A stretch of DNA of 61,791 bases, filler included, from Bipalium vagum (taxonomy: Eukaryota), in assembly GCA_037834085.1 (NCBI GenBank). It is 3 parts of 3 records of this genome, joined end to end, with 100 filler letters (N's around TTAATTAATTAA, not from the genome) between each part and the next. Parts side by side here need not be neighbours in the genome. Positions count along the whole stretch, not along the records: positions 1 to 25,368 come from JBBMKC010194719.1; 2 more parts are not named here. One strand, written 5' to 3'. Below the pieces are notes generated by a model. The model did not search any database, had not been told where the DNA came from, and was given only the letters and a program-made list of their open reading frames with translations. The position numbers and the translations under genes were made by a program. Every line of letters begins with the position of its first letter. The stretch's first letter is position 1. Of the stretch, positions 1 through 61,719 are shown piece after piece.

Positions 1-70
<70 letters not shown>
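1..70. repeat. (TTA)n microsatellite
   Basis: Pure TTA triplet run at the window start. Confidence 0.98.
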
Positions 71-71
<1 letters not shown>

Positions 72-176
72 TCATTCATTTTATTTATAAAAGATTAATT
101 CGTTTAACTTTTTAAAAAATTACTAATTTTCTTTTACATCAGATGAAATCTGTTTTAAGTGTTCCTTCAAGAATTT

Positions 177-419
177 TCAACTTACAGAAATATTATCATT
201 TAAAGGATCAGAAATATTTATTATTTTGTTATTATTCATATTTATAATACCTTTCATTGAATCTCCAGTAACATTAAAAAATTTATTTTCACTTTCATCT
301 CTAATAAAATCAATAACCTCATTTTCATTTTTAAATTGATAAGGTGATTTTGAATAAATATATTCTCCATTTTTAGCAAAAGGTTTCAATAGCAAAGGTT
401 TCAAAAGCGGAGCTTGCAT
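177..419 (-). CDS. Hypothetical ORF fragment within the Polinton remnant
   Basis: 80-aa ORF starting 21 bp after the protease stop, same strand, virus-like compact spacing; no recognised motif. Confidence 0.35.
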   Translation of the reverse strand: MQAPLLKPLLLKPFAKNGEYIYSKSPYQFKNENEVIDFIRDESENKFFNVTGDSMKGIINMNNNKIINISDPLNDNISVS

Positions 420-439
420 TTTTTATTTAATTTTTAATT

Positions 440-1001
440 TTAACTTCTCAAAAATACATATTCTAACTCCTCTAAAAATCGAGCAAAGCTCTCACGAAGT
501 TTTACTTCATTTTCCTCAAATTGTTTCTCAATAAAAAGTTGATATAAAACATATGAAGTTAATTGTCCACAATAAGATAAATCTGTCCCACTTTGAAAAT
601 CAAATGTATTATACTCTTTAACATGTTTCTTTAAATCTACAAGAGGTGGTAAACCATAAGAATCAAAGTAGTTAACATTAAAAAATCCAACCTAATGAAT
701 TCCTTTTTGTTTTGTATTTTGATAATTAATAATTAATGGAATTTCTTTTTTTAATATGCGAGGTTTCACCTCTAGCAGTAAGCTGCGTTTTTTCTTTGAG
801 TTCATCCAGAATTAAAACTTTTAAGGGAAATTCTAAATCTTCAGCAATATCTATTAAATCAAAATTTGTTGTTGTATTAATTCCATATTTACATAAAAAC
901 TCTAAAAGTGACCCGAAGGGTCTAGAAGCTTCGCTTCGTAAAGGTGTTCTAACTTTTGAAAATCGAGACGAACCTTGTGGTTTCAAAAACGTAGTTTGCA
1001 T
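440..1001 (-). pseudogene. Polinton cysteine protease (adenain/C5-like PRO) pseudogene
   Basis: After a frameshift near 735 it reads IINYQNTKQKGIH*VGFFNVNYFDSYGLPPLVDLKKHVKEYNTFDFQSGTDLSYCGQLTSYVLY. This gives the H(W), YFDSYG, Q and CG catalytic motifs, with the W codon mutated to TAG. Confidence 0.85.
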
Positions 1002-1212
1002 TTTTTTAAAAAATTGAGTTGGGAAAAAAATATTACTTTTGGGAAAAATTTGAAGTTGAAAAAGGGATCAAAATATAGACCAGCTCAGCTGGCTGGAGTA
1101 AAACTCAAAAAATTTCCTTGTTTAATAATTTTAATTTTATTTTTACACATTTTCCCCAATAACTCTTTAGTTCTTTTCTTTCTAATTTCTGTAAACTTTT
1201 ATATATAAACTA

Positions 1213-1832
1213 TTATATTAAACTATTTAAAATTGTATCCTTTAATCCTTTACCAAAATAAGTATCATAAAAAACTCCTGCTTCAGTTTTTTCAGATGTG
1301 GAAGCTTTGCTTCCTAGAACTTCGGCTTCAACTTTTCCACTTCCATCTCCAATTTTTTTTCCAATTCTATCTTTTCTTTCTCTCCATTTTTTGGAGCTTC
1401 TTTCGACTTTTGAATTGCTGTTGTGACTCATTCAGCATCTAAACCTGATTCTCTTGGTAAACTTAATCCTAGAACAATCTTGCTCTTCATAATTAATTTA
1501 ACAATTGCTCTTTCTAATTTTTCTCTTGGAGTTGAATTTTGAATGTTGTTCGTTTCGTGAATCATTTCTACATCTGCAACATGTCTATCTTTTAAATCTG
1601 TTGACATATATTTTACATCATGTTTCATTACTCCTTAATCTATTCGATTAATTGGAATTGAATCAGGTTTTGGAATTGGAGGAATATTTAAAGTTTTATT
1701 TTCTTCATAATTATTTACTACCTTATTATAGTTTTCTAATCTTTTATGTCCCTGGCCCACGAAATTCGCAACCGGATTTATTTTATTAAAAGGATTCAAA
1801 GATTTTAAATGAAATTCTCCTGAATATTTTCC
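1213..1832 (-). pseudogene. Parvovirus-type phospholipase A2 domain protein (Polinton/adintovirus PLA2) pseudogene
   Basis: GEFHL...NFVG(PGT, restored by a 1-nt insertion)...PINRID*GVMKHDVKY..DLKDRHVAD...ERAIVKLIMKSKIVLGL: Ca-loop plus HDxxY catalytic motif and the typical C-terminal helix; contains an internal stop and frameshifts. Confidence 0.85.
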
Positions 1833-2639
1833 TTATATAAATTTATTTTAAAATTTGTTTATTTGTCATAGCTGATTGAATGTCACCTCCATTTTTTATA
1901 AAGAGATTTTGATATTTTTCTTGAATATTTTCAATATTAGTTTTAATCCTCCTTTTAGGAAGATTTTCCATTTTTGGAGGAGGAGACCTTCTAATTAGAG
2001 GATTCTATTTTTGGAGGAGGAGACCTCTTTCTAAGAGGATTATCTTCTATTTTTGGAAGAGAAAGATTAGCCCATGATTTTCTACTATTTAAAAAAATGT
2101 ATATTTGTATTTTCATGTTTACTTTTATTTTTTAAAAAATACTTTTATCACAAAATTCACAATAATATTTTTCTAGCATTTTTAAAGAGAAAAAAATTGA
2201 GTTATCTCAATTTAGAAAAAACGTTGGAATTTCCTTTTTTACCCTGCGGGTATGGAAAAGTCACACAAAATTCTTTTTTAGTTGTGGGATTTTATTTTTA
2301 TTATCGAAATATTCACAACCCATTTAAGAGAAAATTTGATTTTTTTATTGTTTTTTTCTAATTTTTTTTACTAATTTTATTTCTTAGAGAATGTCTCTCA
2401 AGAAGCGAAGCCTTGTATTTTTTATTTTTTTCCTTATTTTTTAGAAATATTTTTTTACTTATTTTTATATCTCCAGCATATCCAACCAAAAAATATTTTT
2501 TGAGATGGGGGATATACTGGAGATATAACTACTTATATATATAATACCGAAAATTGTTTATGTATAATTAATTATTACCTTTCGATAACTAATTCAATAT
2601 ATTGACTATTTTACCATTCAATCAAGTTAAGACAATCCC

Positions 2640-3310
2640 AGTGAAGTATTAAACGCGCAGTGATGTAATTTACACAGTTATCTTGCAAAAACATTTTATC
2701 AAAACTTCTTTTCAATTTGAGCTGAGAGGAATATTATCACTATTAATTATTATTAGTTATCAAAAATGATTACAGGTGACGAATGTTAGATATATGTGTA
2801 TTAACCTGAAAATAAAAATCTATCGACGGTATGGGTCTTTAAGATGATCCAAAGCCAACAAAAGTTGATCGTGCTCGAAGTACTTCAAAGCTAATAGTGA
2901 TCTATTCTTTCGGAAAAATTTGATATGTCACAATTGTGACTAGAGTTTCATATAATTGGTAATTCTGAAAGATAAAAATGTTTTTGCTAGAAGGCAGAAG
3001 AAAAAGGAAAGAACAACGAATCATTCTTAACAAAGCCAATGCCAGATTCACATCAAAGAACTAAATTTTTGAACTCCAAAAAAATCACACACACATCATC
3101 TATCGTATAGTCTTGTTCTGTATTCGAACGATTTCTTTTTATTCCCATATGTGGAAAAAGAACTGCGCGGAGAATAATTTTCGGCACCAGAGTATGATGC
3201 GTTCAAATTCATATTCCGTCATATTTTGTTTTCTATGGACAAAATTTTTTGAAAATTGGTTCACAAGTATCCCAAAAAGTATTAACGCGAAGGAGAATAT
3301 TTCAATAAGC
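2640..3310 (+). mobile_element. mariner transposase remnant
   Basis: MITGDE.*IY.Y.PE.K..STVWVF, PKPTKV.RARSTSK and a degenerate HPPYSPDL..NDFFLFP motif, with many stops. Confidence 0.8.
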
Positions 3311-3459
3311 AAAAACATAAATTGTTGCAAATAAATTTTAGTTTTTGACATTATTTTTATTTTTTTGCAATGCCTATCGAGCAGCCCACGCATATTCTGG
3401 TATATTTATTATATAAATATATTTATAAAATTTTGAAAATCTTAAAAATTATTTACCAT

Positions 3460-6400
3460 TTAGACTGCAAGGTAATTAATAACTAAAATTTACCTGCTAC
3501 CGTTAAGGCGTTTTCAACTATTTGTGCAGCATCGTTTCTGTTCATTTCAACGAGTTGCTCCAACACAGCTTTTGTAGCTTCAACTTTTCTTCGAACAGCG
3601 AACCAATCACTCAAAAGACTCATACAGGGGTCAGGATGAGTTGACCAAGCTCGAATATCTTCAACAGAATATCCCAAACGAGACGCTAATAAGGTCCAGT
3701 CTTCGTTTGACTTATCATTCAACAATTTACTGACTTCTCGTGCCCATTTAGGAGCACTTGACACAGTCTAAATCAGCTTAAACTATTATCCAGGAGCAAA
3801 GAATAAACTTTTAAGTCGATTTCTTGAACTTGCTCAACTATTTCTTTGACATTAGCTTTTATTTCAGTGACAACTAAATCATTATCATCGATTTTCTTGT
3901 TAATTTCAACAATATTTTCTTTTTGTTCTTTCAAGTCTCTAAAATTTTAGAAAATTTTATATCATACTAAGCTAAAACATTTTCCTGAAAGAATCTAATT
4001 AATTAAAAAAAAATAAAACATAATTTTCAAAAGATGATAATTATGTGATTATTCTCTGATAAAAAATAATTATCCCAATTTATGGATTAGAAACCCTGAT
4101 CTTCTTTCAAAATTTATTGATTAAAATGAGCCTTGAAGATATATCCATTAACTTATGTTATAAGAAATGACAAAGACCAACAAAAGAGAAAGGTTATTAC
4201 TGGTAAAATCTTAAAGACAAAAAAGACAATAATAAATAAACATTTTTTTATTGATTGTATCGAAACTATAAAGAGACTTTATAATAATATAATTATAAAA
4301 ATTCAACCTCACGGAATACGTCCTCAGTATGTCTATGGAAGATTGAGAAAAAAGATATTCAGATATGTTTGGACTTTAGAAGTGTTAATGCATTGTATTA
4401 TATCAAAATACCAGAATGTAATGAGGAGTACAATAAATTTCTTCCTACAGACTAAGATTAAACATGTTATCAAATTGAGTTCAATTCAAAGGACTCTCTT
4501 GCAATCTGTTTAGGCTTTTCTTGTAGAATTGGCTCCTGTATTGAAAAACCCTAACTTATTGGTAATATAGTCGGTAAATTTTCATTGATTTGCTCATGTG
4601 CATTTGATTATTTTATGGTGTTTGTTATTTTGCATTTTAAACTGTGCCTTTCTTAACTTTCTTTTCATCTTCTATTTTGCGGATGTTCATACCGTTTCCA
4701 AGCTGTTTTATTATTATCTTCTTGACTTCCCGATTTATCTTGTTCTTTCTTTCTTATTTTATCAAATGTCATAATTGGCCACAAAAATTTAACAAAAATA
4801 TTTTTAAATAAATCTCAAATTATGAATATGACGATTTTATAGACATGTTCCAAGCAATACAGTGCTTAAATTAAAATTTTCATAACTTTACTCTATGTCG
4901 GTGTACTTTATAAAATTGATTTTATTTAGTAAATATATTTCAATTTCATTATAAAATTGTACTTTTTATTGAAATGTACTTCATGTTGGGTGTACTTTAA
5001 AGGGAGATTTCAATGTATTTAGATTTTCCAACAAATAATAATCATGTAATTTTATCAAATTATCAGTTATTGTAATTTTTATTTTATTTTTCTATCTTAA
5101 TTAGATTAAGAAAAATTATAAAATATGCTTTATAGTTATTGTTTTAAAATTTTAATACATTTATTTTAACCTAAAAGCTATTTTTAGAAGTATCCTTGCA
5201 TTTATAGAAGATAAAATTCTTAAAAGAAACTTATTAAAAATTAATGTCACAAAAATATTTTTATTATCCTGTAAGTAAAATAATGTACTCACTTTCCGAT
5301 CGCGTCGACTAGGCCACTCTGATCCTCTACTTTCTGATCAATCAATTCTATCACTTGTTTCTGTTTGTTGATATTAGAGTCCAACTGAGCCAAAGACCGA
5401 TCGGCAATAATGTCCAGTAAATGCTGACAAGTGTCATGGAAAGCTTTATTAGATTTCTGCCAATTTTCTATATTCGTTTTGAATTTGACCAGTAAATCAT
5501 TTCTCAACAGTCCCATGGCTCGAAGTCCACTGAAGATGCAAATGCAGAACGAGTTATCACCGATGTTTTGATTGATCAAATCTGCAATCAGTGAAAAGAG
5601 CTGCTCTCCAGAACTCTTGAAAATGATTTAACTTCACATAAATTAGCAATTGAAAATATTTACAAGATCCTGTTCCAGAATGTTGGTAATTATCCCCATA
5701 AATGGGGTTATCATAACCAATTTAGAACTTTCCAAGCCTTCCACAAGCTTATTCAAAAATGGTCTCAAAGCATGTGAATGGGTTTTACTGATAATATTGA
5801 TCAGGTTTCCTATAAAGTAAGCATTGTTTGTATCTTCAACTAATTTTTCCACAATGTTTGGGATAATGTTTTCGTTGATCTTCTGAATATATGATTATAG
5901 ATAGACACCGTTAAATAATAAACGAAATTTGTTGTCATGCTTTTCTAAAGCATTTTTTAACATAAAATAAATTTATAAATTTAATAAATTTATCGAATAA
6001 TATCATAGCTAATTAGACGTTAACATATTTGCATTAATGTTATATTTGTGTTCAACATAAAATAATAAGTAATCTACAGTCAATAGTATGGCCTTGTTTA
6101 CATGCCTACCAAAATTATTATTTCAACAAGACTCCGGTGTGATTTATTGAACATCATGTAAATTGTCCAGAAAATTTTGAGAGTCGTTGATTGAAGCAAA
6201 AATTAATATACACAGTGTGTTATATAAGTAACCGAACTTTGGATTTAAATCATAAATTAAGTTTCATTTGTTTAAACTAATCATTAATTTAAAATTACCT
6301 CTTTCATTTTTGAAAATCATCAAAATTTATTTTATTTGGATAACAGATTGAATTTTATTTGCCTTTAAATAAAGGTATGTATCATGCTTATGTCATAGAT

Positions 6401-9400
6401 TTACAGTGGAACAAAGAGTAAATATTACATTTTCAAGGGTATATATCATTTGGACAATTTTAACGAAAGATTTTGGTAAAAGAAAGGTTTGTTCCCCATG
6501 CATTAACTGAAGACAAGAAAACAGCTAGTGTTGAATATTGTAAAGATATCCTCAACAATGTTGAAAACAATCCAGAATATATTGACTAAATGATAACTGG
6601 TGACGAGACGTGGTGTTCAAATATGATCCGTAAACCAAGCGTATTTTATGAAAATGTTCAAGCTATTCAAGCAGCTGTAACATCAGTGCTCACGAAAATT
6701 CCTTTAAATAACTTTAAAAAATTAATGAATGCACTAGCTGACCGTGCCAGATGTTCTATCGAATCCCATGGAGTTCATTTTGAATAATTATAATCTTTCA
6801 TGCATAATATAATGTGTATTTTATTGTATATATATATATTTTTATAACAAGCTTTGTATCTAATTTTGAAAAATGGAACAGCTTTAACTTGAATGATTTT
6901 AAGGTTTATTTTGATTAGTTTCAAACCAAAGAATTACTATTATTATTAATTTATGGTTTTAAAACATTAATATAAAAACCTCTGGATATTCGGTGTATGT
7001 AGTAATCAATATTTGAATAATAGGTAGAATATGATGACCGTTTTCCAATGAAGTTAGAAAATTTTCCAATTTATTCAAATGATCCAAACCAGCCAAGGGT
7101 TTGGCTTCAATAATGACCTGAAGTCCATCTGTACAATAAACAATAAATAATGAACATTGATTTAAAAGAAATGACTGTACCTAAAAATGAATAAATATTT
7201 CCTTCCATACTGGTGCCCGTTAATTTGTCAACCATTTCTACAATATCGGGAATATTATTAACAAGAATTTCTGGTGATGTACATTTTCTTGGAACCATCA
7301 TGGCATATGCAACGTACGCAGAGTAATAACTATGAGAATCATCTGTATTATTGAGGGTTTGAAAAAGAAGAGAGTACAGCTCAGCTGTGAAATTCAAAAC
7401 TGGTTTCTGAAATAATAGAATAAAATGTTTTATTTCTCAGCATTTCTATAAAAAGTAATTCCTACTCATACCTAATAGTCATTTTAGGAACTATTCACCT
7501 AAATATTTTTATCGGAAATGTTGGCTTTCAAATTGTTTCATTAAAAATTATCAAATTTCTATTTATTATATTGGCAAAAATATCTTTAATTGTTAAGTTT
7601 TTATTTTCACATAAAAGTGTATGCAATTCATAATATCATATATAACATTTATTAATAATAATATTATTATTTATTACATTTATAATATATATAATTTTGT
7701 GTTAGAAACTTGGATTTTTAAAATTCAAAATCCATACGACTCTGTATGGCGTAATATACTTCATATTATTTTTGTTGTACATTTTGAGACAAAATGACAA
7801 AATTAATCTGTCTTTGTATTGATTAATTAATATTGAATTTTTCTGATATATATGATTGGATGTTGTTTATATATTTCGATTCCTTTAAACTAAGGTGTTG
7901 GATTACAGTTAAAATACCTTTTAATAAATATCCAAACATTTCCATCCAATTTATTATTAATTTTTAGTTAAGAAATAGCTTACTTTTTTACCAATTAAAT
8001 AAATAATTATTTAATAATTTTAAAAGCATTTTTGAAATGAATCTCATGTAGTTAAGGACAATCGGGAAGTCTTTAGATTCCCATGGTGATTTCTGTGTTT
8101 GATTCTATTTTGCAACAGAATGAAAAAATTTGCTTTATTTGTTGGTACTGATTTGATTTTTTTCCTCAAGTATATTGATGATTTTTTGATTTTTAGCAAT
8201 TTCAGATCAATATTAATAATTATTTGATTAAAGAACTTTTTCTGGAAGAGTTTCAATAAAATGAATTATAAAAATATTCAACTTTGAACAGTTCAACAAT
8301 TTTATATTAGAAGACTTGAAAATTTTCCACATTTTCGTCATAGACTAACATAAGGTTTAAAATCAATTTTAATAAATCTATTAACAAAATCACACATTTA
8401 GAACAATTAATAATTATATTAATATCATTTGTTTTCCGAATTTTAAGATGTGACAAAAAATTCACAAAAAACAAGTTCGATTTTTAATGAATTTTATTTC
8501 ATGAAAGAAAAATGCAGTTATCAATTTGGTTCTGATACCATATCAGAAAGAACGATGTTGAAGTGGTTAACACAATTAAGCTAAGTCAGTTTTGAGTTGA
8601 AAGATGAAGCTCGTTCTGGCCGACCAATCGAAGACAAAATAATGAAAACAATCAACCAAGACCGTCACATAAGCAATTATGGCATTGCTGCGGATATAGG
8701 GATTTGTAAGATATTGTTGTAATCATCTGGAAAAGCTGGGCTACAAGGAAAAGTTTGATATTTGGGCGCCTCATAATTTACCTGAAAAGAATTTAATCAG
8801 CAGAATTTCTATTTATGAATCTTTATTGAATAGAAATGAATTTGAACAGCTTCTTAAAAATATACAGTAATTGCAGAATCTGAAAAATAGATCAAGTATG
8901 ATAATAATGTGAGAAAATGTCGTGGTCCAAAAAAAAAGCTCCACAAAATATTGCAAAATCAATATTGTCTTCGAGAAAGGTGACGTTGCTGTTTACTGGG
9001 ATTTTGCAGAATGAATTGCTGAAACCTGGTCAAACAGTTGATTTTATATTTTATTGTCAGCAACTTGAAAGATTAAATCAAGCGATGAAAAAAAACTACC
9101 TGAATCTCTCAACATAAAGAGCATTGTGTTTTATCACAATGACACTCGTTCATACATCTTTAATGAGTCGTCAAAAATTGAAAGAGCTTGAAGTGGAAAG
9201 TTCTCATGCAACTAGCGTGTAGTCCAGACCTAGCACCATCGGATTACCCTTTGTTTCTGTTTCTGCATAACTTTTTTTAATGGTATAAACTTTTTAAATG
9301 GAATTCCAGTGATTTCAAGAGAAGACTGTGATAAAAACATTGAACATTTTTTGATCCGTGATGGCATTAGGAATTTACCAAATAAAAGGTGAAAGATTAT

Positions 9401-11935
9401 CGAACAAAATGGAACATATATAATTAAATAGTTTTTTCATTGTATGAAATTTTTTTACTTTAAAGCAGATGAATTTTTAGGTCACTTTTCCTTAATGATT
9501 TAATTTATTTGAAATTTTTTGAAGTTAGTTAAAAAGTAATAGAAATATCGATAAATTTTCAAGATAACTTAAGAAAACCTATCTCAAATAAAAATGTAGA
9601 GAAAACAAAATCTAAAAAATAATGTATAAACAATCAATTACCGTAACAAGAAATTGTTGAAAGATAAACAGAATTATCATAGAGTTGGTATTGAATGATA
9701 ACTCTCCATCATAATTCTCCCACTGCAAACCATTTTCCAAACAGGACCTACATATAATAATGATCTCTTTCACCGAAGATAAATATTTTGTTGGGGACTG
9801 ACTAAAGTAAAATATGAAAAGTGAGATGAACTAAATTTCAAGAGGAAACCTTATGAATTCCGATATGTTTTTTATCAACTCACCAAGTGCAAGGGTGTGT
9901 GGATTATAAATGAGAAACAGCATGTTATTAATCAATGAGTTTATAAGCTTCAACAATTCCAGCATTTCTTCTGGGGAATAATCCTAAATATTTTCAATAA
10001 ACTTTTATATTATGTCAATAATATCTATAACTTCTTAACACTTCTTTTTTATTGACAGTTATTATTGAAATAAATCATTGTATTAATGCCCTTGAAATCA
10101 AAAAATTCTTCTACACCCTCCATTCCAAAAATAACCGAACTTTAAAAAAAGGCAACCAATATTTTTTTGATTAAAATAATTTTTATTAATCGATGTAATC
10201 GCCTTCTGCATCGATACACAAATTTGCACGCACTAACAAGTTGTCAAACAACTTCTCTTTTAGGTAATAGTCTAGGCACCGGTCACCGTATTTTTTATGC
10301 CCTCAACCGACTCTGGAAGCTTTCCTTTGATCGTCAAATGAAGTTTGGGAATAAAATCAGCATAACCTTCACTTTTGATTTTTCCAAACGAGATTTTTTC
10401 GGTTTTCCCTCATCCGGCGATCTCCATTCAGCACTCTGCCGCTTTGTTTCGGGCTCATACCTAAAACATCTTGTCATCGGTAAAAATCGTTTTCAAGACG
10501 TTTGGGTCTTTCCGAGCACTTTTAATGATGTCTTTGCTATGATCAATTCGAGGCATTTTTTGGTCTTTGGTGAGTTTGTGTGGAACAAACCGCGAATTAA
10601 CCTTACGTAAGCAAAATGCGGTCAAAATACGGTATGCAGTTGTTTGAGGAATACCTAATTTCATTTCAATCAATTTCACCGATGATTTTTTATTATTTTT
10701 GATAAATTCACGCATTTTTTCAATGTTATCTTCCGATTATCCAGTTTTTGGACGGCCTGGTCTTTCGTCGTCATTTATGGTCTCTCTACCCGATTCAAAT
10801 CGCTTGAACCACTCGTATACTTGCCTACGAGATAGACATTCATCACTATATGCAGATTGTAGCATTTGATGTGTTTCGGTAAAAAATTTAACACAAAAGT
10901 CAATTGCAGCTCTTTCTTTGAAATTCATTTTCTAACCGAAGTATTAAACAGACTAACAAAAACGTAGCAATTACTCACGTTGTTTATATCATAATGTCAT
11001 GAATATTTTATCGATTGTCAATGAATGACCACGTTATCTAGGGGTATAATGTTAAAATAAATGGTGCTTGTAGTACTATTTTTTTAACAAGTTCGGTTAT
11101 TTTTTGAATGGAGGGTGTATTAAATACAATTTATTTACGTAAATAACAGTTTTAATAAAAATTATAAATGAGAAATATTTTAATTTTAAAAATAATCTTT
11201 TATCTTAATACTTTTCGAACTTTTTGTTTTAATTATTAACCGAAATATTTTTTTATTAAATGTCATTTTTAACTTTAGATGTTTTTATTATATTGAGTAT
11301 TGTTCATATTATTAAAAAAACATTCTAAGTTTAAATTTCAAAGAAATGTTAAAATAAGCTCAAAGTTTAATCTATCAAATAATAAATGTTAAAAATAATG
11401 ACGTTCTTTAAATGCACCATTCTTATACAGTTCCTAATTTTTTGCGAGGTTGTAATGTATTCTTTCCTTTCCAATAATAGTAAAATAAAATATGTTTTAA
11501 ATGCAAGTTCCGATACTAAAGCTGGTAAATAAAAGTCGAAACAAAGTAATCTATGAAATTAACTTACTGATCGAAATATGAATCCATAGATTATCTTTTA
11601 ATATATAAATATTGATTATTTTATTTAGAATAAAGTTACATGTCTTTATGTAATATCGGCAAATACTCTTGGTTAACTCAACAATATAATGAGAAATAAG
11701 AATGTATTAAAGAAGATGCGATGTTGAATTTTTAAATTCTATTTACAACCAGGTTAATTTTCTTTCTCCAAAATTTCAAATATATTCTCATTAAAATCAA
11801 ATAACCTTGAATATTAAGTATGACTGGAATCCACGAATAAACATAATACGAGTGAGACCGAACTGACTAAGAACTTTAAACAGGTTTCTTTTCAAATCTT
11901 CTTGGACAACTGGTGAGTTAAAGGCCTTGGATAAC
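3460..11935 (-). CDS. Multi-exon helical-repeat (ARM/HEAT-like) + coiled-coil + C-terminal Death-domain protein, 5' end unresolved
   Basis: Phase-consistent GT-AG exons 11935-11806, 9983-9850, 9801-9642, 7406-7181, 7128-6980, 5882-5664, 5615-5293, 3938-3809, 3767-3494 and 3464-3460 give about 582 aa without stops. Death-domain motif DWTLLASRLGYSVEDIRAW...SLLSDW...LVEMNRNDAAQIVE. Alternative end at 3483 if the last 29-bp intron is unspliced. Confidence 0.85.
4240..4510 (+). mobile_element. Ty3/Gypsy reverse-transcriptase fragment (decayed)
   Basis: Alternative frame STSRNTSSVCLWKIEKKDIQICLDFRSVNAL resembles the Gypsy RT S.SP.ASP.V.V.KKD...R.C.DYR.LN motif. Confidence 0.45.
4560..5017 (-). mobile_element. 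pogo/Tigger-like 5' remnant
   Basis: TA-CATTGAAATCTCCC TIR-like end at about 5015 and a decayed basic N-terminal ORF. Confidence 0.3.
6210..6800 (+). mobile_element. Internally deleted mariner remnant
   Basis: (V)PHALTEDKKTASVEYCKD...MITGDETWC joined directly to the transposase C-terminus (RARCSIESHGVHFE); TIR-like TAACCGAACTTT shared with the element at 10114. Confidence 0.75.
8400..9480 (+). mobile_element. mariner transposase remnant
   Basis: LKDEARSGRP, WAPHNL (WVPHEL) and CSPDLAPSDY motifs with frameshifts. Confidence 0.85.
10114..11117 (-). mobile_element. mariner element with intact TIRs and TA TSD, internally deleted
   Basis: TIRs CACCCTCCATTC(C/A)AAAATAACCGAACTT at both ends flanked by TA; transposase MNFKERAAIDFC...WFKRFESGRETINDDERPGRP...FVPHKLT...TDDK, with most of the DDD domain deleted. 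Confidence 0.92.
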
Positions 11936-12689
11936 CTAAATATTTTGAATAAAAGGAAATGAAACAAAAATAGGAAAAAGTTAAGGAAATTGTTATTAGA
12001 GTAAATATCTTGATATTTTAATTTAATATTAAAAAAATATTCAGGGAATAAACATATACTGATGGTCAATATTTTTTGTACAGTAAGTAATACGTAATAA
12101 TAACGAAATAGAAAAGAGTTAGAGAAATGATACTTTCTGTAATAAATGGTAAACTTCAAAAATTGTTATGCTCATATATAAACTTTGTTAATATATTTAG
12201 AGCTACATGGTTAAAATCTAAATTTTATTTACTTTTTCAGCTATAACAATTTAAATCTTCAAACATTTTTTAATTACCAAATTGAAATTCTTTTATATTA
12301 TTATAAAATTAAATTACTACGTAGTCTGACGGATTTTTTTTCGTATTTTATATACAAAAATAAATTAAAAATTTGTTTAAATATTCTTGTATTTTGAAGT
12401 AACAAACAGATTACAAACCTGCCTTAGATTATTTGAGAAAATCTGTTTTTTTATCTAACACATTTAAAAAATCGAATGAATCAATTTTCATCCTGTAGTT
12501 CCCCGCTTAAAATATAAAAGTAAACCATTGCTGAAACAACGTATCAATCTGGCAATAATGATCTACCTATGTCAATAATGTTTTCATTATTCCATAGCTC
12601 ATGTCAGGAGGTTCTCGAGCGTTAGCAAAACAGACATAGACAAAAAAACTATATCATTTGATTGGCGGAATCGGAAAAGAATCATTAAC

Positions 12690-13605
12690 ACTAACACATT
12701 AATACTAACATGGACGAAGTTCCTATGTGTTTATATATGCCAGGAAACTACACAATTGAGCAGAAAGGTATGGAAAATGTCAAAATAAACACCACGGGTG
12801 CTGAGAAATGTAGCTTTACTTTTGTGCTAACTGTCACTGGTGACGGTGGGAAACTACCTCCCATGGTAATATTTAAAAAAAAACTGTACTGAAAGAGAAA
12901 TTTCCAAAGGGTATCATTGTTCAAGCAAATGAAATAAGTTGGATGGATACTCAAATGCTTAAATTATGGTTAGCAGAGGTTTGGCGAAAGGGACCTGGAT
13001 CTTTCTTCGAACCAAAATTTACTCTAATTTTTGATTATGCTCCTTCGCATTTAACCGAAACCTCAAAAATAGACACTAAGAGATATTCAACAATTGCTGT
13101 AATTCCTGCTGGATTAACAAAAACTTTTGCAGCCATTGGATATTTCAGTCAATAAAAGTTTTAAATCAAAAGTTAGAAATAAATGGGAACGTTGGATGAT
13201 TAGTGGATTCCATACATTCACAAAAGGTGGTAAAATGCGGAGATCATCATATTCTACTGTTTGTGAATGGATAAACAAAGCATGGAAATCAATTACTCCC
13301 TGATGCTTTGTTAACGGATTTAAAAAATTCAGCATTGTGGAACGTATTGATAAATTGAATGACTTCTCTGATTCAGAGCCTGATAAGTTAGCAGATGAAG
13401 AAGAGGAAGATTTACCCAAATTACCAAAGGATTTTTTGGACATGTTGGATTCTTTGAATTTGAATCAGAAAATGAAAACGATTTTTAAAATAAATTTTGG
13501 CTCTCACTTTTGTTTTTTTCATGTAATCTTTTTGTACAGTTTGCCATGTATAACGAGCATAATATTTGTCAATAACATATCTTTTTTCTTTATATAACGC
13601 GCATA
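12690..13605 (+). mobile_element. pogo-family (DDE_1) transposase pseudogene
   Basis: NMDEVP...TTGAEK..FT.VL....DG.KLPPMVIFK, WMD...W, IPAGLT..LQPLDISVNKSFK; frameshifted. Confidence 0.9.
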
Positions 13606-15184
13606 TATATCATTTATTAATTTGGGAGAGTTGGTTTCACTCTTCATCGGCACCTGAGGTTCGGCTGTTGCTTTTTTGAGATCATTAGTAACTTCTGCAC
13701 ACTCCTCCTAGAAGGTTTGTGTGGGTTGAGTGTAGTTTGTTATCATTTTTACTGTAGATCCCAACAAAAATGTAAAATAACATTGGTAGATAATAATAAT
13801 ACTTTTAATAGTAAAATAAATTTTAGTAATGTTAATAACTATAATGTTTCTAAAATTATTAATTTTTAATAAAAGAAAAAAATTTAAAAATGGTAATTTA
13901 AAATTTTTCATAAATTGAGAAAAATTACTGATTTGAAACAATCATTGATATTCCCTGAAAATCGTGAACAGTTAACAAAACCAAAAGAAGATTCAAATAT
14001 GCTCTCCAGTTATCGGATTATGAAACCTGATTATTTGTTGCTTAGCTGATGACAAATGAGGCAGAGGGAATAATTGTCTGTACAGGAACCCGGTAATACA
14101 CTAATTGGTAATTTATATTTCTTTTATTATTATCTTGTTTGATTATAATTAAAATAATATTTATTTTTAAGATGATCAGATAAACTAAGCTTTCAGATAC
14201 AGATAAATGAATGTAACATCTTGAAACATGGAAGACACTTGTCTCAGAAACAATGGTTGGATCAAATTCATTGTCTTCCAAGTTGCCTGGTTCACAACTT
14301 AAGCATACAATGAAAATATATTTGTCAATTGCACTTTATTAAAAATTTTATTATAAAGTTTTTCTCAAAAATACTCTAGTTAATTTCTTTTTGAAAAAAG
14401 ATGAAGAAAGAAATGTTAAGATGAAAAACAGATAGAAGGTGATGCTTCTAATGAATACTTTATTTGTTGATTAAAAATGATATATTGGCTAACAGATGTT
14501 TATCTTACTTGCCAAACTTTGTGATTCGGTCGTAAGTATCCTCTATACGAAATGTAGAAAGATTGAACGGAAAGGAAATGGTATAATCTTCGTCTTTTGT
14601 TGCCTCAATGGCATTGAGGGCACATTGATCAATTAGTTGATTGAGTTTTTCCGGATTGTTCTAATAACATTACCAAAGTTTGTTTGAAATGTGATGAAAA
14701 ACATTTTCATTTCTTACTTTAAAAAACTCTTGCATTGGTTTTTCAACAAATTTGAAGGAATCGTTAAAAATTTCCGCAGACTCCGTGTTATGTAATGCAA
14801 TTAGTTTGGTCATAGAGGCTATGTAAGCTTCAAAATGTTGTGGCGTTCTATTGTTAAGTAAAATATTTTTCTCCTTTACCAATAATATCGAACTTCATCG
14901 CCAGTTGAAGAAAGACATGAGTAAATGATTTCACCAGATCGGTCCATTTCGATATTTGGTCTTTAACAGAAGATGATTGTTCATCTATTTCATCCGACTC
15001 TTTTGGGTATTTTTCAATCAAAGCGTTAAGAACATCCGTTGCATCTTTGATTAGATATTCACAGTTCTAAAGTTCATTAATTGAGGCTCACATTTCACAA
15101 AAGATACTTAGGTTATTGTTGAAAAAATTTAATTTTTTTAAATACATAATAATAAAATGAAATACAATTCTTTTTATTATATAT

Positions 15185-16260: not shown

Positions 16261-17999
16261 GAAAAATAATTTTAATAATATATTATTATTTTGAAAAATT
16301 AAAATTTCATTATTATTAGTTTTATTTTATTAATATAATGGTAATATTATTATCATGATTAAAAGTATAAATTATATGTAATCATATTTGCGATTTTGAT
16401 CATAAAATTAGTTACATAAATGAATATAAATGAAGAATGTAAATAAAAGATAAATCCAAATTACTTTGAATGCAACTGAGTGAAACTTATCATCAAGATA
16501 ATAAATTTCTCTAGATAAATCTCGTATAATGTCCTTCATCCAAGCTTGGTTTACTTTACATAAGTCTAAAAATGTTTTGATCCATTTATCCATTATCTTT
16601 TCCACATTGTCTTTGCTATTTCTTAATGTTCTCAAATTAAATTTCCTTAAAATGAAATTCAATCACGAACTTCAATACTCCGCTTGCCGAATAATAAAAC
16701 TGATTTATCATATCTTTTCCAGTTGTGGTCGAGATATTTTCTGTGACTAGCCGGTCGGAAATTTCACAAAAGATTTTGACAAAGTTATCTGGAAACTGGA
16801 AAATGTTTGTCATTTTATGACCAATCTTTTAATAAACAGAAAAAAGGTTTGAAATTTGTTAAATTTTATAAATACTTATTAATATTGATTGTTATTTAAA
16901 GAAAATTAATAAATATGACTAAGTGTATTTTAAATTGTAAATTTTCAGGACAAATTTTGTTTTTAATTTAATGATTTTTTAATAAATAAAATATTAACAA
17001 AATTGAATGTTTTTTTATAATTATAAGAAAAAAAATATAAATAAAAGAATAATATAAGTCAGATTTCATTGATTATCGAACTAAGAATATCGAATTTGTA
17101 AATGATACTAATTCCCAGATTATCACTGTTTACGATATCATGTATATTAACTGAAGATAAAGCATAATTGATGCTACTATTTATTTAAAAAATATTGTCA
17201 TTTTTCCTGAAATTACTTAAAAAAATAATTTTTTAATACATTCTTTTTATTAGGCCAGCAAGATATTTAGTGTTCGTAATTGAGTAAACCATTTCTAAAG
17301 AGTTTCATTAACATAAGTATATTCGGATTTTCTTATTCGTTTCAAATTGGTTGAAATACTTTTCAAAAGCTCTCTTATTTTTGATTTTCTATTACAAATT
17401 GTATTAATTTATTAGTTTAAATTCACGACCATCTATCTTTTCTTTTCATTTTCTATTGCATCAATAACTTTTATTTCCCCTACAATTATCAAATTTTTCT
17501 TTTACATTCCATTTCAGCTAAAAGTTATATTAACATATCTATTAATATAATACTGAATAACTTGAATAAAATTATTTAAAAATGAATAAAAAGTGAGCTG
17601 TTAAAACAAAATATTTTTAAAAATATTCATATTTTAATGTTATTTATATATGTCGAACTAATCGAGGTTTGTGACGTGATATGCAACAAAATAAGAAATA
17701 TATCAAACCAAAACTAGCACATAAAAATTGACTTTAAAACCGAGATGTCGCTTTCTCTGATGTCTCTATAACCGAGTTATACTGTATACTTTAATTTAAA
17801 ATTTTTATATAATAATTTTAATTATATTTATAATTAAAAAAATTCCTTACAAAATTTTTATTAAATTAATAAAAATAATTTTGCATTCCTATCAATTAAA
17901 ACAAATTTTTAAGCTTTAATAAATTCCTTTTCTATTCTTCCACTTGCGTTTTTAGACGATATCTTCTTTCTTGTATTCTTTTTATAATTTTTAATAGCC

Positions 18000-18957: not shown

Positions 18958-20056
18958 TAGATGCAAGAGGAGCAAAAATCAATATTCTAAAAAATAAAAA
19001 CTGAGTTCCTACTTGAAGAAAAATTTTTTTCAACTGATTGCTGGATCTGTGCAAAATTGTGGAAAAAATTTCTATTTCTTCTGGAATTCCATTCCAACTT
19101 TTAAGATACAGGTTGTTGACATATTTGTGAAAATTTTCTGGATTCTTTTCAAATACTGAAACTCTGGATAAAGTAAAGTTTTACAAAAAAGTAGGAATAT
19201 CTTTAATATGGTATCTATAAAACAGATTTATAAACTTTTATTTTCAGCCATTTTTAAGATAAAAAAGAAACCGAAAGAAACAACGGTAAAAATTGACAAA
19301 ATCAATTAGTTCCATTACAGTTTTCAATAACTTATGTCAATGAAAAATGAAAAATTATTTTTTCAATTTTCAAGGAAAGGTTCTTAAAAAGAACGATATT
19401 TATGATAAAAAGATTATAAGTGTTTATATTATACCTTATAAAGTAATTTTTGCTCTCAAATCAATAATTCCTCACTATTCAATGTTGCGTTCGTTTTACT
19501 ATTGTCACTGCACAAATTTAAACTCAATTTAAATCAAAAGTCCAACAATAAAACCTTATCAGCACCATAATTGAATCAAAACAATCACGATAAAACTTTA
19601 TTAAAAATTAAACAACAACCTGACGCACTCGTCGCAACAAAAAACTCCTTCAATGTCTGATTATCACAAAAACAAAATTTTATCAATGTCAAATAGAAAA
19701 AATCAATATTTTCCAATCGACTTGCTAAAAGATAATCGTCAAAATTAGGTCCTTTGAGGATCACCTAGGGATTCACCAGGTCGCTGGGTCCTCTTGGTCG
19801 AGATTTTGATATATTTCTTTTTAGAATTACTTTATATTTAAGTTATTAGTTTATTATTATAGTTTACTATTATATAGTTTACTATAATTTTCCTAACTTT
19901 CAAAAGTGAACCTTCTCTCACTTAGGAAAATTTGAATAAATGTAATACTTAAAAAATCAAATCGTATTTAAGATTATTAATTATACAGAGCGACTTAAAT
20001 TGATTTTTTAGTTTTCTGTAGAATTTAAATAAGATTCTTAATGGAATTCAGCTTAA

Positions 20057-23340: not shown

Positions 23341-24213
23341 ATTAGGCATTACTCTATTATGAGACGTTTTCATAAAAGAAAATTGTATCATTAGGAAACA
23401 ATTAAAATTAATCAAAATTTGATTGATTTAGAATAATCATAAAAGAAATCGATAACTAATCAATATTATTAATTATGATATTCAAAGTGAAACAAAATAC
23501 CTGGAAATAATTTTCGCTTAAACTGTTGAGCATTAAGTCCAACATGTCACAATTTGTTGCGGTCCATCCTGATTTGATGGTCAATTTTATACAATTAATA
23601 AGATCTTCTTGAACATTAACATTAATACTGTCTCTAAATATTATTTAATTTAGTTAAGATCTGCAAATTATTTACTTAATAACTGACTGAATACTAGACA
23701 TACACTTTATTAACATTACATAATCTTTGGATTTGAAGACTGGGTTGTATTTCTGTATCTTTTGACCCAATGTGTTTATGATGGCAGAGATGGAATCTCC
23801 AATTTCATTAGAATTAAGATTATCAATGGCCGATAAAAAAAGATTAGATTCTTCTTCAGAATTGTTTTCAAATTTTGAATTCAATATTAATTTATTCATA
23901 AAGTCGTAAAAGTATAAGAAAATGATATGCTTAATTAATTTAAAATTCGTGAATGCTGATAGGTGGCTAGTAACAAAAAAATTATTACTTATATGAAGTA
24001 AAACAAAATTCTACTTCTATAAAAAAATATATTGAAATAATTAATATTCAACAATTAATAAGGATAGAGTGAATACATTTAAATTATTATAAGTTTTAAT
24101 CTATCATTCAAATAATAATCTCAATTCTGATTACGGTGTATATTAAGTTGTTTTCAGTATCATAGAAATAACTGCACGTTTGGAAGAAATCATTTCACTA
24201 TTTTACGAATATC

Positions 24214-25368: not shown

Positions 25369-25468
25369 NNNNNNNNNNNNNNNNNNNNNNNNNNNNNNNN
25401 NNNNNNNNNNNNTTAATTAATTAANNNNNNNNNNNNNNNNNNNNNNNNNNNNNNNNNNNNNNNNNNNN
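25369..25468. other. Assembly gap with artificial linker (44 N + TTAATTAATTAA + 44 N)
   Basis: Exactly 100 bp with a six-frame stop linker in the centre. Confidence 0.97.
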
Positions 25469-30389: not shown

Positions 30390-31449
30390 TCAGTTTTTAT
30401 TTGAAAACATACGTTTATGATCTGGCTTTAAATCTTTCCATAGATTTTTTGATACTGATTTATTTGAAGAAACAGTTTCTGAAGAATTTATTGTCAGCTT
30501 CCCCTTTTCTTTAAGGATTTTCGATTCACATTTCAATGTATGAAATTGATAATCATTATAATTATCAAATACATTCCGACACTGGCATGTTAGTTTAACT
30601 AAAGGCGCTTGATTTCCATATACCATTACATTATCTAGTATATGCCGATCCGAGTGAAACTGAGAATTTGAGATTTCCATAAAGTCGACTTGACTTTTTA
30701 TTGAATTTTCAGATGAACCAATCAATGATGATTTAAAATTATCAACCGAAGGGTTTTTATTAATCACTAGAGATTTTCGTTGTGAAGAGTTCTGCTCCAA
30801 ACAGATTCCGCTAACTGGAGATTTAAGTTCTGAAAGTTCAGAAACATTGTGAATTTTCGATTTAATTTCATGTTCAAGGACTGGAATAATATTTTTTTGA
30901 TTTAAAAGTTCTTCATTAGAACTTGAGGCTTTCCGATTTGAATTTATATCACAAATGTTTTGATGACGTAGATAAGCAGGTAACCAATCAAATGTCAAGT
31001 TGCATAAGCATTGATAATAACCAGATTTATTATGAAAATTGTCAAAATGTGAATTCATTTCAATTTTTATGACTTCATTCAGTGAGTGCTTCAACATACA
31101 AATTTGAAATTGGCATTCTGGACATTTTGATAAATATTCCACATTATCTACCTATTCATATAAGGTTATAACTAATATTAATTTGGTAACTTACATTAGA
31201 AACATTTCTCAAATGAATTGAACGACCCCTGGTGGTTTTACCAATTGACTGTAATTCTCTTTTTTTATTAAATAATTATTCAATTAAAATAAATTACTTC
31301 ATAAATTCTTCATTTACATTTATTTTTTCAAATATCATTTTGAGTATTTCACTATCTGACCAGAAATTTGGTATAATTTGGAGTTGTTTCTTAATATTTT
31401 GAAATTCATCATAACAGGCTTCAGATAGTGGTACTATATAGTTTGGCAT
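30390..31449 (-). CDS. Zinc-finger protein (one C2H2-like and two CxC-x12-HxxxC fingers), about 325 aa
   Basis: Exons 31449-31298, 31258-31195 and 31151-30390 are in phase (39- and 43-bp introns); motifs CPEC...HFDNFH, CLCNLTFDWLPAYLRHQNIC, CQCRNVFDNYNDYQFHTLKC. A GTATGT donor at about 30412 may extend the gene. Confidence 0.75.
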
Positions 31450-44748: not shown

Positions 44749-44848
44749 NNNNNNNNNNNNNNNNNNNNNNNNNNNNNNNNNNNNNNNNNNNNTTAATTAA
44801 TTAANNNNNNNNNNNNNNNNNNNNNNNNNNNNNNNNNNNNNNNNNNNN
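44749..44848. other. Assembly gap with artificial linker
   Basis: 44 N + TTAATTAATTAA + 44 N. Confidence 0.97.
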
Positions 44849-45179: not shown

Positions 45180-46322
45180 TCAGATTTTCTTGTCCTCAAT
45201 ATTCAGAGTGACCCCTGAGTTCAGAATGGAATCTCTCTTCTTACTGGCCGAGTTATAGTATACTTTAGATTTAGCAACATAGGAAGCCGTATTCATGGAT
45301 ATATCGTAATCTTTACAATGAAACAATTTCAACAATAAAAATCTAAATTGTGCACTGATCAAAAGCAAAGAAAGTGGATTCAAAAACGGATAGAAATAAG
45401 CAATGACTTGGGTTAGTACCATGGCATAATAGTTGCTGTATTTGGAGGAATAGACAACGATACTATGAATTTGTTCTGGCAGTCTACATAAGAGAAAGGT
45501 TACAATAAATCCGATAACAATTTTCGACGACTTTCTCCGTCTATTTATTGATCTCGAAGTAATATTAGCCTGTACCACTTCAGAGCCACCTTGACTTTCC
45601 AGTTTCAGTGCAATTATTAAATAGCAAACGCTCATGATAGAAAAGGGTAATAAAAAGTGAATAGCAAACTTGGTCCACAAAAGGGCTTTTGCCTTGTTCG
45701 AAGTAAATCCCTCCCGATAAAAACAAACATTGAGCTGAACACAAGACTTATTTACTTGAAGGGTTTTTTCCAGAATGTTTGTTTCCGACACAATTGGTAG
45801 CGATATCATTATAGAAACCAACCAAATAGATATTATGACGATTAAAACAAATTTCTTAGAACGCCAGTATGATGATTGATGGCTCAAAGGTAATACGATC
45901 GCAGTAAATCTGAAAATAATAAAAGATTTCTTTCCAATTAATTATCTATACAAATTTAACCTGTCAATTGCCATTACTGTCAAAGTAAAGACACTGCCTC
46001 CAAGAGTTGCATATTTCGTACAAGCTTGAAGCTTGCATATGACAGAACCCCCAAGAAATGTCGACCAAAACAATCTTGGAACATCAATCAAAACATGTCC
46101 AAACAAATAAAGTATGTCAGCTGAAGCTAGGTTAGCTATAAAAAGGTTCGGAATAGTTTTTAAGCTCTTAAATTTCACTATCAGAAACAGTATGAGAAGA
46201 TTGAAAATTAAACCGAAAACAAAGACAAACAATGCCAAAATTACCACTAAATACTGTTTAAAGCCCGTTGAACCTCGATAAAATGTAGGGTTTGTACAGT
46301 TTTTCAATTCAATGATGGCCAT
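45180..46322 (-). CDS. Rhodopsin-class neuropeptide GPCR, bombesin/GRP-CCHamide-endothelin-like, 363 aa
   Basis: Two exons (46322-45961, 45909-45180) with a 51-bp phase-2 intron in DR|F; 7 TM; IPNLFIANLASAD, ICKL, SVFTLTVMAIDRFTAIVLPL, HFLLPFSIMSVCY, NPLSLLLISAQFR. Confidence 0.9.
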
Positions 46323-47719
46323 AGAATTAAAGAGAATTCATGGAAAGTTATGAAAATAAGAAAGATATTCATTGCTTAATAAATATTGGTGGTTAAATTA
46401 AAAAATAAATCAACCAATCGTAAAGCACGTAAAAATGATTATTTTCTGCAATTTATAATACACCTTGAAATGTTACATTACCAAACAGAAATTACAAACA
46501 ATAACTTTTTGTTTTGATGTCTGAAGTATGTCATAATACAAACAAATAATTTAGTGATCACAAATTCATTTTGTTTACTTATAAATATTTTCAGTCACAA
46601 TACACTTCTCCCAGCGCCATTTTCATTCTTCCAAGTAGTATACCTTTCGTAATATGTATGAAGACAGACTAGAATAATCTTGGTACATCAATTGAAAATG
46701 ATATTCATTTATTATTATAAAATATTATTATTGATCAGATTTAATATTACTAAAATTATAATATTATGCAAGTAATGTAGAACTTATGTCCCAAGCTAAT
46801 GTCTTCAATGATTTTCAGTTGATGGATTCAACAGAATTTTGATTGCTTTTAATTTTCTTAAGATTTCACTGAAGTAAAATGGAGGAATAAGAATCTTGAA
46901 AATATAAAAATCAAGATCCATGAATATTTTATATTAATTGAGATTGTTTAATGTAACGAATTTATCACTGGTTCAAGATATTTTGACCAAATATAAACGC
47001 ACAACCATTCCTCAAGCAGAATATTCACCTGAAATAATTTTAGTAATATTATAAAATTTTAATAAGTACTTTATTTAAAGGTTTTATTACAATAAAATCG
47101 CCTGGTATTATATGTCTAAGGATATAAATTTTAGTATATTAATAATTTTACAATGAAATAGAACTTAAATTTTTTAAAAAATAATATAGAATTCTCTTAA
47201 TTTGATAATTAAGCATTGTTTGAATATTCAGATTTGTCATGGCAAAATAAATAAGGGTTAATATTGATAATTGTGGAACAATTCTTAAATTTCTTAAAGA
47301 AAATAACATTTAAATATTAATATTCAGCAAAATCTTTAATATCGTATTAATTTTTTTTCTTGTATTTGATCAAAAATATAACAATATGTAAACCCGTAAA
47401 AATTTTGAATTATAATTACTTTAAGCCAGGTTAGAAATTGACAACCTATAAAAATATGGTAAAAGATTAAAAAATAAATATATATATTCCTAAATTAATG
47501 TACGTAGAATTATTATGATCAATAAAAAGAAAACCATATTCCGACATTATGTTGATCACTGTAGTGAACCAAACTGTATCGAAGTATCTTAGATGATATA
47601 AGTGCATTTAGACAATTGAACATATGAAAATAAAAATCTTCGTCATTTCATCTAAATCTATTCCTAATTCATTACTATATGAATTAAATCTTCTCTCAAA
47701 CTTATTCATTGTGAGAAAT

Positions 47720-59093: not shown

Positions 59094-59305
59094 NNNNNNN
59101 NNNNNNNNNNNNNNNNNNNNNNNNNNNNNNNNNNNNNNNNNNNNNNNNNNNNNNNNNNNNNNNNNNNNNNNNNNNNNNNNNNNNNNNNNNNNNNNNNNNN
59201 NNNNNNNNNNNNNNNNNNNNNNNNNNNNNNNNNNNNNNNNNNNNNNNNNNNNNNNNNNNNNNNNNNNNNNNNNNNNNNNNNNNNNNNNNNNNNNNNNNNN
59301 NNNNN
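59094..59305. other. Sized assembly gap (212 N)
   Basis: N run without linker. Confidence 0.97.
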
Positions 59306-60672: not shown

Positions 60673-61426
60673 CTACAGACTGGTTTCAATGAGGTTGAAT
60701 TTGATTCTTTTCAACTTATCTGAGATCGAAAGGCTCGTTTTTGTCCGTTCATAAATGGGGATTTTCCGACAAACGACAACGTTTTTGAATCCTTCTCGAT
60801 ACGTCTGAGAATATAAGCAATAAATCCACGGATTAATACAAGTGTTCGTTGCGGAGATTAGTTGAAATATGGGAATCAAATAATCGGTAATGAGATCGGC
60901 AAAAGATTGTGTCCAGAAATCTTTATTGGAATAGAAATAATAAATGAAAATCAAATAGAGAGGTAACCACGAAATGGCAAATGTCAGAACAACCATGAAC
61001 AGCATTTTAACTATTCGGATAGATTTTGATCGACTTATGCCCCCCGTTGATTTTATCAAAGGAACTTGTTTCAGCTTTCTGCTATTCGACGTCATATTTG
61101 CTCGCTTATAAATTCGGAAAGCAATACCAAAATAGAAGCACGATATTAAAATCAACGGTGCAATATAACATGTTATGAAGATGACATAAATGAAGTAGTT
61201 CTTTCCCTCTTTGTCCGTTCCCGGCCATTCTTGAATGCAGATTGTTTGGGTTTGATTGATCACTGCAAATGATGTCGAATTGATTAGGTCGATTAACACA
61301 TGGGTTTTATAAAATAAAGCCCATGGTAGCAGTAATAACGCGGAAGAAATCCAAATCAGGGATATGATGGAAATGGCTTTAGATATATTAAGAATTCGAT
61401 GCAAAGGGTGGCAAATTGCAATATAT
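60673..61426 (-). CDS. SIFamide/NPFF-receptor-like GPCR, 3' exon (TM3 end to C-terminus); 5' exon(s) not found in the window
   Basis: Acceptor TTTAG at 61427, then (DR)|YIAICHPL; LPWALFY, CIQEWP, CYIAPL, IVKMLFMVVLTFAISWLPLY, NTCINPWIYCLYSQTYREGFK. Confidence 0.88.
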
Positions 61427-61719
61427 CTAAATATTGGAAAGTTTTTTGTAGAGTGATGACCAAAAGCTTTAAACATCAATTAATTTCAACTAAAAAATGT
61501 TGTAAAATAATCTACAAAATATATTGTTATGAAAATCATCAAAACAGATTTATTTATTTTCACCATTAGAAATTTATTTCTATATTTAAGGTATTTTTGT
61601 TACAATATAATTATTTAATTTTAAAAATATTTAAAAATGATTATGATGTTTTCTCTGATTTTAATAAAAAATAAAAGAAAACTCTAATAGTAAAAGAAAT
61701 TTTGATAATAATTTTAAAT

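Follow-up and report, generated by a model that had tools for sequence, protein, structure and literature searches.

The window, a 61,791-nt stretch of DNA from the flatworm Bipalium vagum (GCA_037834085.1) consisting of three parts joined by filler, was found to contain a Death-domain gene on the minus strand of its first part (JBBMKC010194719.1, positions 1 to 25,368). The original prediction, made from the sequence alone, had described ten phase-consistent exons encoding about 582 residues, in which a helical N-terminus with a missing 5′ exon was followed by a heptad-rich segment and a Death domain, the protein ending 1-3 residues later. The ten exons (11935-3460) were found to contain GT-AG ends, matching phases and 582 codons without an internal stop, and the gene was found to extend 5′ by five more phase-consistent exons (16825/16813 to 14509), as the expected missing 5′ exon had implied. 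The full model contained 837 residues in 15 exons, all of the GT-AG type, without stop or frameshift. The locus is a real, intact-looking gene.

When compared with a profile of 26 full-length homologues, model residues 30-836 were aligned as a single domain (E value 8e-105). Exons 1-8 were placed at the expected profile position with 19.1 bits, a score reached by none of 50 shuffles, whereas exons 1-5 alone scored 17.3 bits and were placed at a wrong profile position (548-750), so that the support for them rests on the joint alignment. Approximately 245 positions at the start of the family profile were left upstream of the model match. Three further 5′ exons are probably present at 23899-23676, 23633-23501 and approximately 19160-19013, and these candidates at 23.9, 23.6 and 19.1 kb may supply the leftover positions. 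For an exon linking 23501 and 19163, 77 candidates were compared and no clear winner was found.

The introns of the gene were found to be either 40-57 nt (all eight short ones) or 1.1-2.6 kb long, in a window with a GC content of approximately 27%. The 15-exon model has 14 introns, of which six belonged to the longer class, and three of these six contained pieces of mariner or DDE_1 transposases. Broken mariner-type (Transposase_1, HTH_48) and DDE_1 pieces were located at intron positions 8585-9300, 10460-10930 and 12690-13300.

The N-terminal region of the encoded protein was found to match the solenoid part of the family profile, in agreement with the predicted helical N-terminus. The solenoid resembled CAND1, importins and adaptins according to the family profile, to the Atlas features (below 0.9 and used as leads only) and to the structural model of the homologue P0017, which had a mean predicted local distance difference test (pLDDT) of 83 and low template modelling (TM) scores to HEAT proteins, a generic solenoid likeness. 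The solenoid was followed by the presence of a heptad-rich segment, as predicted, in which the a/d positions were 78% hydrophobic in one register and 14-50% in the other six. The Death domain, also correctly predicted, started at model residue 746 and was matched by PF00531 (E 5e-10 on 3486-3767), with which the Atlas concurred, and p75NTR was the closest solved Death domain. The N-terminus had in addition been likened to that of VEPH1/Melted, which contain a C-terminal PH domain. No PH domain was matched in the scanned exons of the window or in any of 73 homologues, and no match named VEPH1 or Melted was returned by any search, although a direct pairwise comparison was not made. No SAM domain was matched in Pfam scans of the window exons or the homologues.

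A HMMER search with the Death exon was found to give 130 matches, 77 of them at E ≤1e-10. A word-indexed protein search of the same exon against longer proteins gave no match, which in view of the HMMER result reflects a limit of sensitivity. All 41 long matches scanned first contained a Death domain and TIR_2. Among the 77, a TIR domain was found in 45 of the 47 matches of at least 300 residues and two TIR domains in 37, so the prediction of a poorly studied invertebrate family with a Death domain followed by TIR was borne out. The two matches without TIR both break inside the Death domain, and the cluster mate of one of them carries both TIRs. When a bivalve member was used as the query of a second search, 50 proteins were retrieved, each of which contained TIR_2. 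Named members were found in molluscs, annelids, a nemertean, Macrostomum, rotifers, echinoderms, a hemichordate and amphioxus, and all family matches were named 'uncharacterized', 'hypothetical', 'unnamed' or by a domain label, with no functional name. Between roughly a half and four fifths of the 56 family members contained the predicted signature motifs.

The presence of an ARM-like N-terminus, a Death domain in the centre and two TIRs is given as the hallmark of ecTIR-DC family 6 (Gerdol et al. 2017, as quoted in PMC6836662; papers are cited here and below by PMC identifier for selected passages of each), and the classification is further quoted in passages of PMC5549309 and PMC6321704. The gene was found to contain a long ARM/HEAT-like N-terminal solenoid followed by a family-type Death domain in a central position, and its homologues carry two C-terminal TIRs. 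By this quoted architecture the gene likely belongs to ecTIR-DC family 6, from which it differs in that the window contains no TIR exon and the solenoid is strongly diverged (approximately 24-30% identity over long alignments). When compared with 16 loci, the Death exon had a DNA identity of 0.50-0.57, with a best value of 0.75 over 40 nt. The module had been predicted to be undescribed, a claim that does not hold: the family is already classified in PMC6836662, and the Aplysia member LOC101850562 (P0015) is called 'MyD88-like with Armadillo-type fold' in PMC9334734.

The Death domain of LOC101850562 was found to be 57% identical (E 4e-25) and BLASTP aligned the protein with model residues 330-836 (E 1e-40), whereas it has 1422 residues and contains two TIR_2 domains. 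The best full-length match was found in Macrostomum lignano (P0023, model residues 191-833, E 1e-53; also P0137), which differs in that both TIRs are present, so the full architecture is kept in another free-living flatworm. In the family homologues the Death domain precedes TIR as in MyD88, whereas in MyD88 the Death domain is N-terminal in a short protein with a single MyD88-type TIR; here it starts far from the N-terminus, and the homologues contain TIR_2-type domains, mostly two. With SARM1 the homologues share a helical solenoid, an assembly module and a TIR with a conserved Glu, and a parallel in working logic is likely. The assembly module of SARM1 is a tandem SAM, whereas here it would be a Death domain with a coiled coil, and the solenoid matches HEAT proteins. 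Among the distant matches, P0122, P0123, P0126, P0128 and P0129 contained Death and TIR_2 with Roc and/or COR in place of the solenoid, two of them with Neuralized; Roc/COR-type Death and TIR_2 proteins are noted for Aplysia in PMC9334734.

The Death exon was found to end with G|GT at 3494. To place this site among homologues, 39 metagenome loci with an alignment to the Death exon were fetched, of which three cut short and a weak match without the site (L039) were set aside. G|GT was present at the same codon in all 35 loci that reach the exon end, many of which are near-duplicates and do not represent 35 independent lineages, and AG was found directly 5′ of the exon in 38 loci. A TIR exon was found 87-1820 nt downstream in 24 of the 35 loci, including 23 of the 23 with more than 600 nt remaining, and the 11 loci without a TIR exon had at most 590 nt remaining. 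The residue at the exon end had a codon starting with G in 34 of 39 spliced proteins. Among short unspliced open reading frames of the databases without TIR, 25 of 26 contained Gly at the exon end followed by unrelated sequence and a stop, as in the window, and the closest of all homologues, P0002, contained the same Gly followed by a different, longer tail. In loci L031-L033 and L035 the first TIR exon was interrupted, near profile position 52, by an additional intron that is not present in the remaining loci.

Splice sites were scored with a small matrix built from the sites of the gene itself, with leave-one-out for donors. The 3494 donor reached 8.6 bits, against -1.0 to 7.5 bits for the 15 others, and ranked among the top six of 973 GT sites. 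Since the donor is both conserved and the strongest in the gene, the Death exon is an internal exon of the family type, and the stop after the Death domain is most simply read as intron sequence. The predicted end of the protein 1-3 residues past the Death domain is therefore not upheld, the stop lying within the intron of the homologues. The predicted tenth exon (3464-3460) is unlikely: it requires a 29-nt intron, shorter than every short intron of the gene, and its acceptor scored -3.3 bits, lower than any of the 14 others (-2.4 to 10.6), with 782 of 1108 AG sites scoring at least as high.

The DNA 3′ of the donor was found to contain 1.3 kb of mostly unique sequence, then a high-copy repeat of 2.2 kb, with a microsatellite at base 1. 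The unique sequence from 2199 to 6234 was identical in every base to a contig of run X1. Extra contig depth at approximately 3140-3490 may mark a small repeat after the donor; it was noisy and not used. The window starts and ends in TAA/TTA microsatellites, which together with the high-copy repeat resembles a scaffold broken at both ends. Within the repeat, a frame at 440-691 (minus strand) gave no Pfam match, and its motifs resemble those of the cysteine protease of Maverick/Polinton elements. An imperfect palindrome of 64 nt (79% self-match, E 4e-10) was present at 2465-2528, downstream of the Death exon.

The most probable account is that the TIR exons lie off the window and that the gene was cut by the assembly. 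Several observations weigh against it. When homologue TIRs were searched against the downstream sequence, as had been suggested, neither strand of the window gave a TIR, whether 44 homologues were used as tblastn queries or a profile built from 38 TIR segments was run against 4742 frames (best E approximately 10). The intron would need to exceed 3.49 kb, whereas the largest resolved here is 2573 nt and those of the homologues are 87-1820 nt. A good acceptor (6.9 bits) is present 53 nt past the donor, the typical short-intron size of the gene; an equally good acceptor 40-57 nt away was found after none of eight long-intron donors and at 1.8% of intron positions, a comparison for which the threshold was picked after the fact. 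The window would also have to be the whole scaffold, and no full-length triclad homologue was identified among the matches. For the enzymatic output considered below, the conserved Glu of the TIRs is presumably the catalytic position known from TIR enzymology.

An actual loss of the TIRs is an alternative that we regard as unlikely: the old donor would be joined to a new terminal exon of ten residues at 3440, or the transcript would end by read-through. In its favour, no TIR was found in the 3.49 kb downstream, the 53-nt intron is followed by a short exon with a stop and AATAAA, and the unique DNA is matched exactly in X1. Pathway losses are also not rare, since planarians are reported to be without MYD88, TLR2/4 and STING (PMC13563047) and FADD is reported missing from flatworms (PMC11463336). 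Against this, a clean TIR-less form was found in none of the 47 long homologues, and the candidate tail is AT-rich, intron-like and without likeness to the post-Death linker of the family. AATAAA occurs eight times within 3460-2200, and strong decoy acceptors were found at 26 and 30 nt past two long-intron donors too. Schmidtea mediterranea, moreover, retains 20 TIR proteins, among them Smed-MyD88 (PMC7958881), which may be the counterpart of this gene with its TIR. The preference for an assembly cut weighs the low prior for loss, given by the 47 homologues and the absence of a second copy in X1, against the intron length and the acceptor at 53 nt. The product of a loss would be a solenoid, coiled-coil and Death-domain protein without TIRs or prenyl anchor, serving as a Death-domain scaffold or a dominant-negative decoy, which is likewise doubtful. 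The predicted TIR-less adaptor or decoy thus appears less likely than a gene cut by the assembly, as its stop follows a conserved donor near the sequence end.

A young pseudogene or a substrate of nonsense-mediated decay, in which the gene would have been broken recently by insertion of the high-copy repeat, would account for the start of that repeat 1.3 kb past the donor. This origin is very improbable, as the 837 codons are open across 15 GT-AG exons and the Death domain is 83% identical to that of P0002 and 50-61% identical to those of distant animals. Other introns of the gene tolerate transposon pieces as well. Among the X1 contigs a further copy of the Death exon was not found at 80% likeness, so the gene is not an obvious spare paralogue.

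The coordinates of the exons, splice sites and repeat of the gene are given in the table.

Table. Exons, splice sites and downstream repeat of the Death-domain gene, listed from the 5′ end of the gene.
Feature	Position	Strand	Evidence or remark
Tentative first coding exon, ATG at 23899	23676..23899	-	Open frame, GT donor; match to profile positions 1-75 not significant (E 0.49)
Tentative second exon, after a 42-nt intron	23501..23633	-	Phase fits preceding exon
Tentative exon, acceptor 19163 or 19155; phase-0 donor fits acceptor 16825	19013..19163	-	Suggested by frame and splice sites only
Solenoid exon, new; acceptor 16825, in-frame ATG 16813	16671..16825	-	Profile alignment from model residue 30
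Solenoid exon, new	16465..16630	-	Splice model and family profile
Solenoid exon, new	14894..15066	-	Splice model and family profile
Solenoid exon, new	14718..14847	-	Family profile; within P0023 BLASTP alignment (from model residue 191)
Solenoid exon, new; phase-2 donor fits acceptor 11935	14509..14660	-	Splice model, BLASTP and family profile
Solenoid exon (first exon of the original prediction)	11806..11935	-	Splice model and family profile
Solenoid exon	9850..9983	-	Splice model and family profile
Solenoid exon	9642..9801	-	Splice model and family profile
Solenoid exon	7181..7406	-	Splice model and family profile
Solenoid exon	6980..7128	-	Splice model and family profile
Solenoid exon, HEAT-like	5664..5882	-	Splice model and family profile
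Last solenoid repeats and start of coiled coil	5293..5615	-	Family profile alone E 1e-14; tblastn matches from 22 of 44 homologues
Coiled-coil exon	3809..3938	-	Family profile alone E 0.005; heptad count
Death-domain exon, phase 0 to phase 1; internal exon in homologues	3494..3767	-	PF00531 E 5e-10; 130 phmmer matches; both boundaries conserved
Conserved phase-1 donor after Death domain	3488..3496	-	8.6 bits; same position in 35 of 35 loci
Terminal mini-exon of the original prediction, unlikely	3460..3464	-	29-nt intron; acceptor -3.3 bits
Alternative candidate terminal exon, 10 residues and stop, AATAAA at 3410	3409..3440	-	53-nt intron; acceptor 6.9 bits; strongest argument for a genuine end without TIR
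High-copy repeat with broken frames, ending in (TTA)n microsatellite at base 1	1..2200	.	Summed contig depth approximately 4,000-15,000 against approximately 25 for unique contigs

Elsewhere in the window, two rhodopsin-family G-protein-coupled receptor genes were found on the minus strand at 45180-46337 and 60673-61479. The sole match at E ≤1e-20 of the second (60676-61425) was Schmidtea mediterranea GCR402, with 63% identity, which points to a likely triclad host of another species. A 253-codon open frame at 30390-31151 (minus strand) contained Cys/His clusters like those of C2H2 zinc fingers and a Ser/Asn-rich middle, and gave no Pfam match at E 0.01. The filler joints between the parts (25369-25468 and 44749-44848) were each found to consist of 12 letters flanked on either side by 44 N, the 12 letters of the first being a TTAA repeat, and a further gap was present at 59094-59305.

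If the gene was cut by the assembly, as preferred here, its transcript would be spliced from the 3494 donor across a repeat-filled intron to TIR exons beyond the sequence end. Judged from the homologues, the whole protein would be a cytosolic signalling protein tethered to the membrane by a C-terminal prenyl anchor. A CaaX-type C-terminal end was found in 48 of 56 aligned members, which the literature passages seen on the family do not mention, and it predicts prenylation and membrane tethering. The HEAT-like solenoid may serve as a sensor or brake and the coiled coil and Death domain as the assembly module, by which two TIR domains would be brought together as the output. The tandem TIRs may act as enzymes that cleave nicotinamide adenine dinucleotide (NAD+) as SARM1 does, besides any role as adaptors of the MyD88 type. 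In the homologues, the Glu closing the S-x-N/S-C-x-x motif was present in 55 of 56 first TIRs and in 52 of 52 second TIRs matched by the pattern, and the closest solved TIRs included the NAD+ hydrolase AbTIR (a weak match, E 5.5e-5). An enzymatic output and an adaptor output appear evenly balanced. As of 2020, SARM1 was the sole metazoan TIR with known NADase activity according to PMC7075850.

In the passages cited, ecTIR-DC proteins are described as missing in vertebrates, with a hypothesised role as adaptors or regulators (PMC6321704), and family 6 was found to be gill-enriched in two bivalves. No functional study of family 6 was found in the literature searched (listings and selected passages, with bioRxiv supplements outside the scope), and the passages of PMC11103948, PMC6043800, PMC3308963, PMC4993586 and PMC11755087 added nothing on the family. 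Smed-MyD88 of S. mediterranea is described as not clustering with true MyD88s (PMC7958881), whereas a survey of 2026 reports no planarian MYD88 homologue (PMC13563047), the supplements of which contained no match to myd88, TIR or death. The two accounts could be reconciled if Smed-MyD88 is the counterpart of the gene described here.

There is a small chance that the only ecTIR-DC family 6 copy of this flatworm has shed both TIRs and the prenyl anchor and ends on a new exon of ten residues. If so, this would be the family's first clean TIR-less member and would indicate a TIR-independent job for Death-domain assembly. With the anchor gone too, the Death domain would be the protein's only means of action, and the solenoid and Death domain would have a role of their own in a lineage reportedly without MYD88, TLRs and FADD. 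The locus most probably represents an ordinary orthologue that was truncated in a fragmented assembly. Together, the CaaX end and the conserved Glu in both TIRs of the homologues, the latter likewise not mentioned in the literature passages on the family, predict, from sequence, a membrane-anchored TIR enzyme assembled by its Death domain. Planarians are amenable to RNA interference and reportedly have no canonical MYD88 or TLRs, so with a triclad orthologue the family could be tested in an intact animal.

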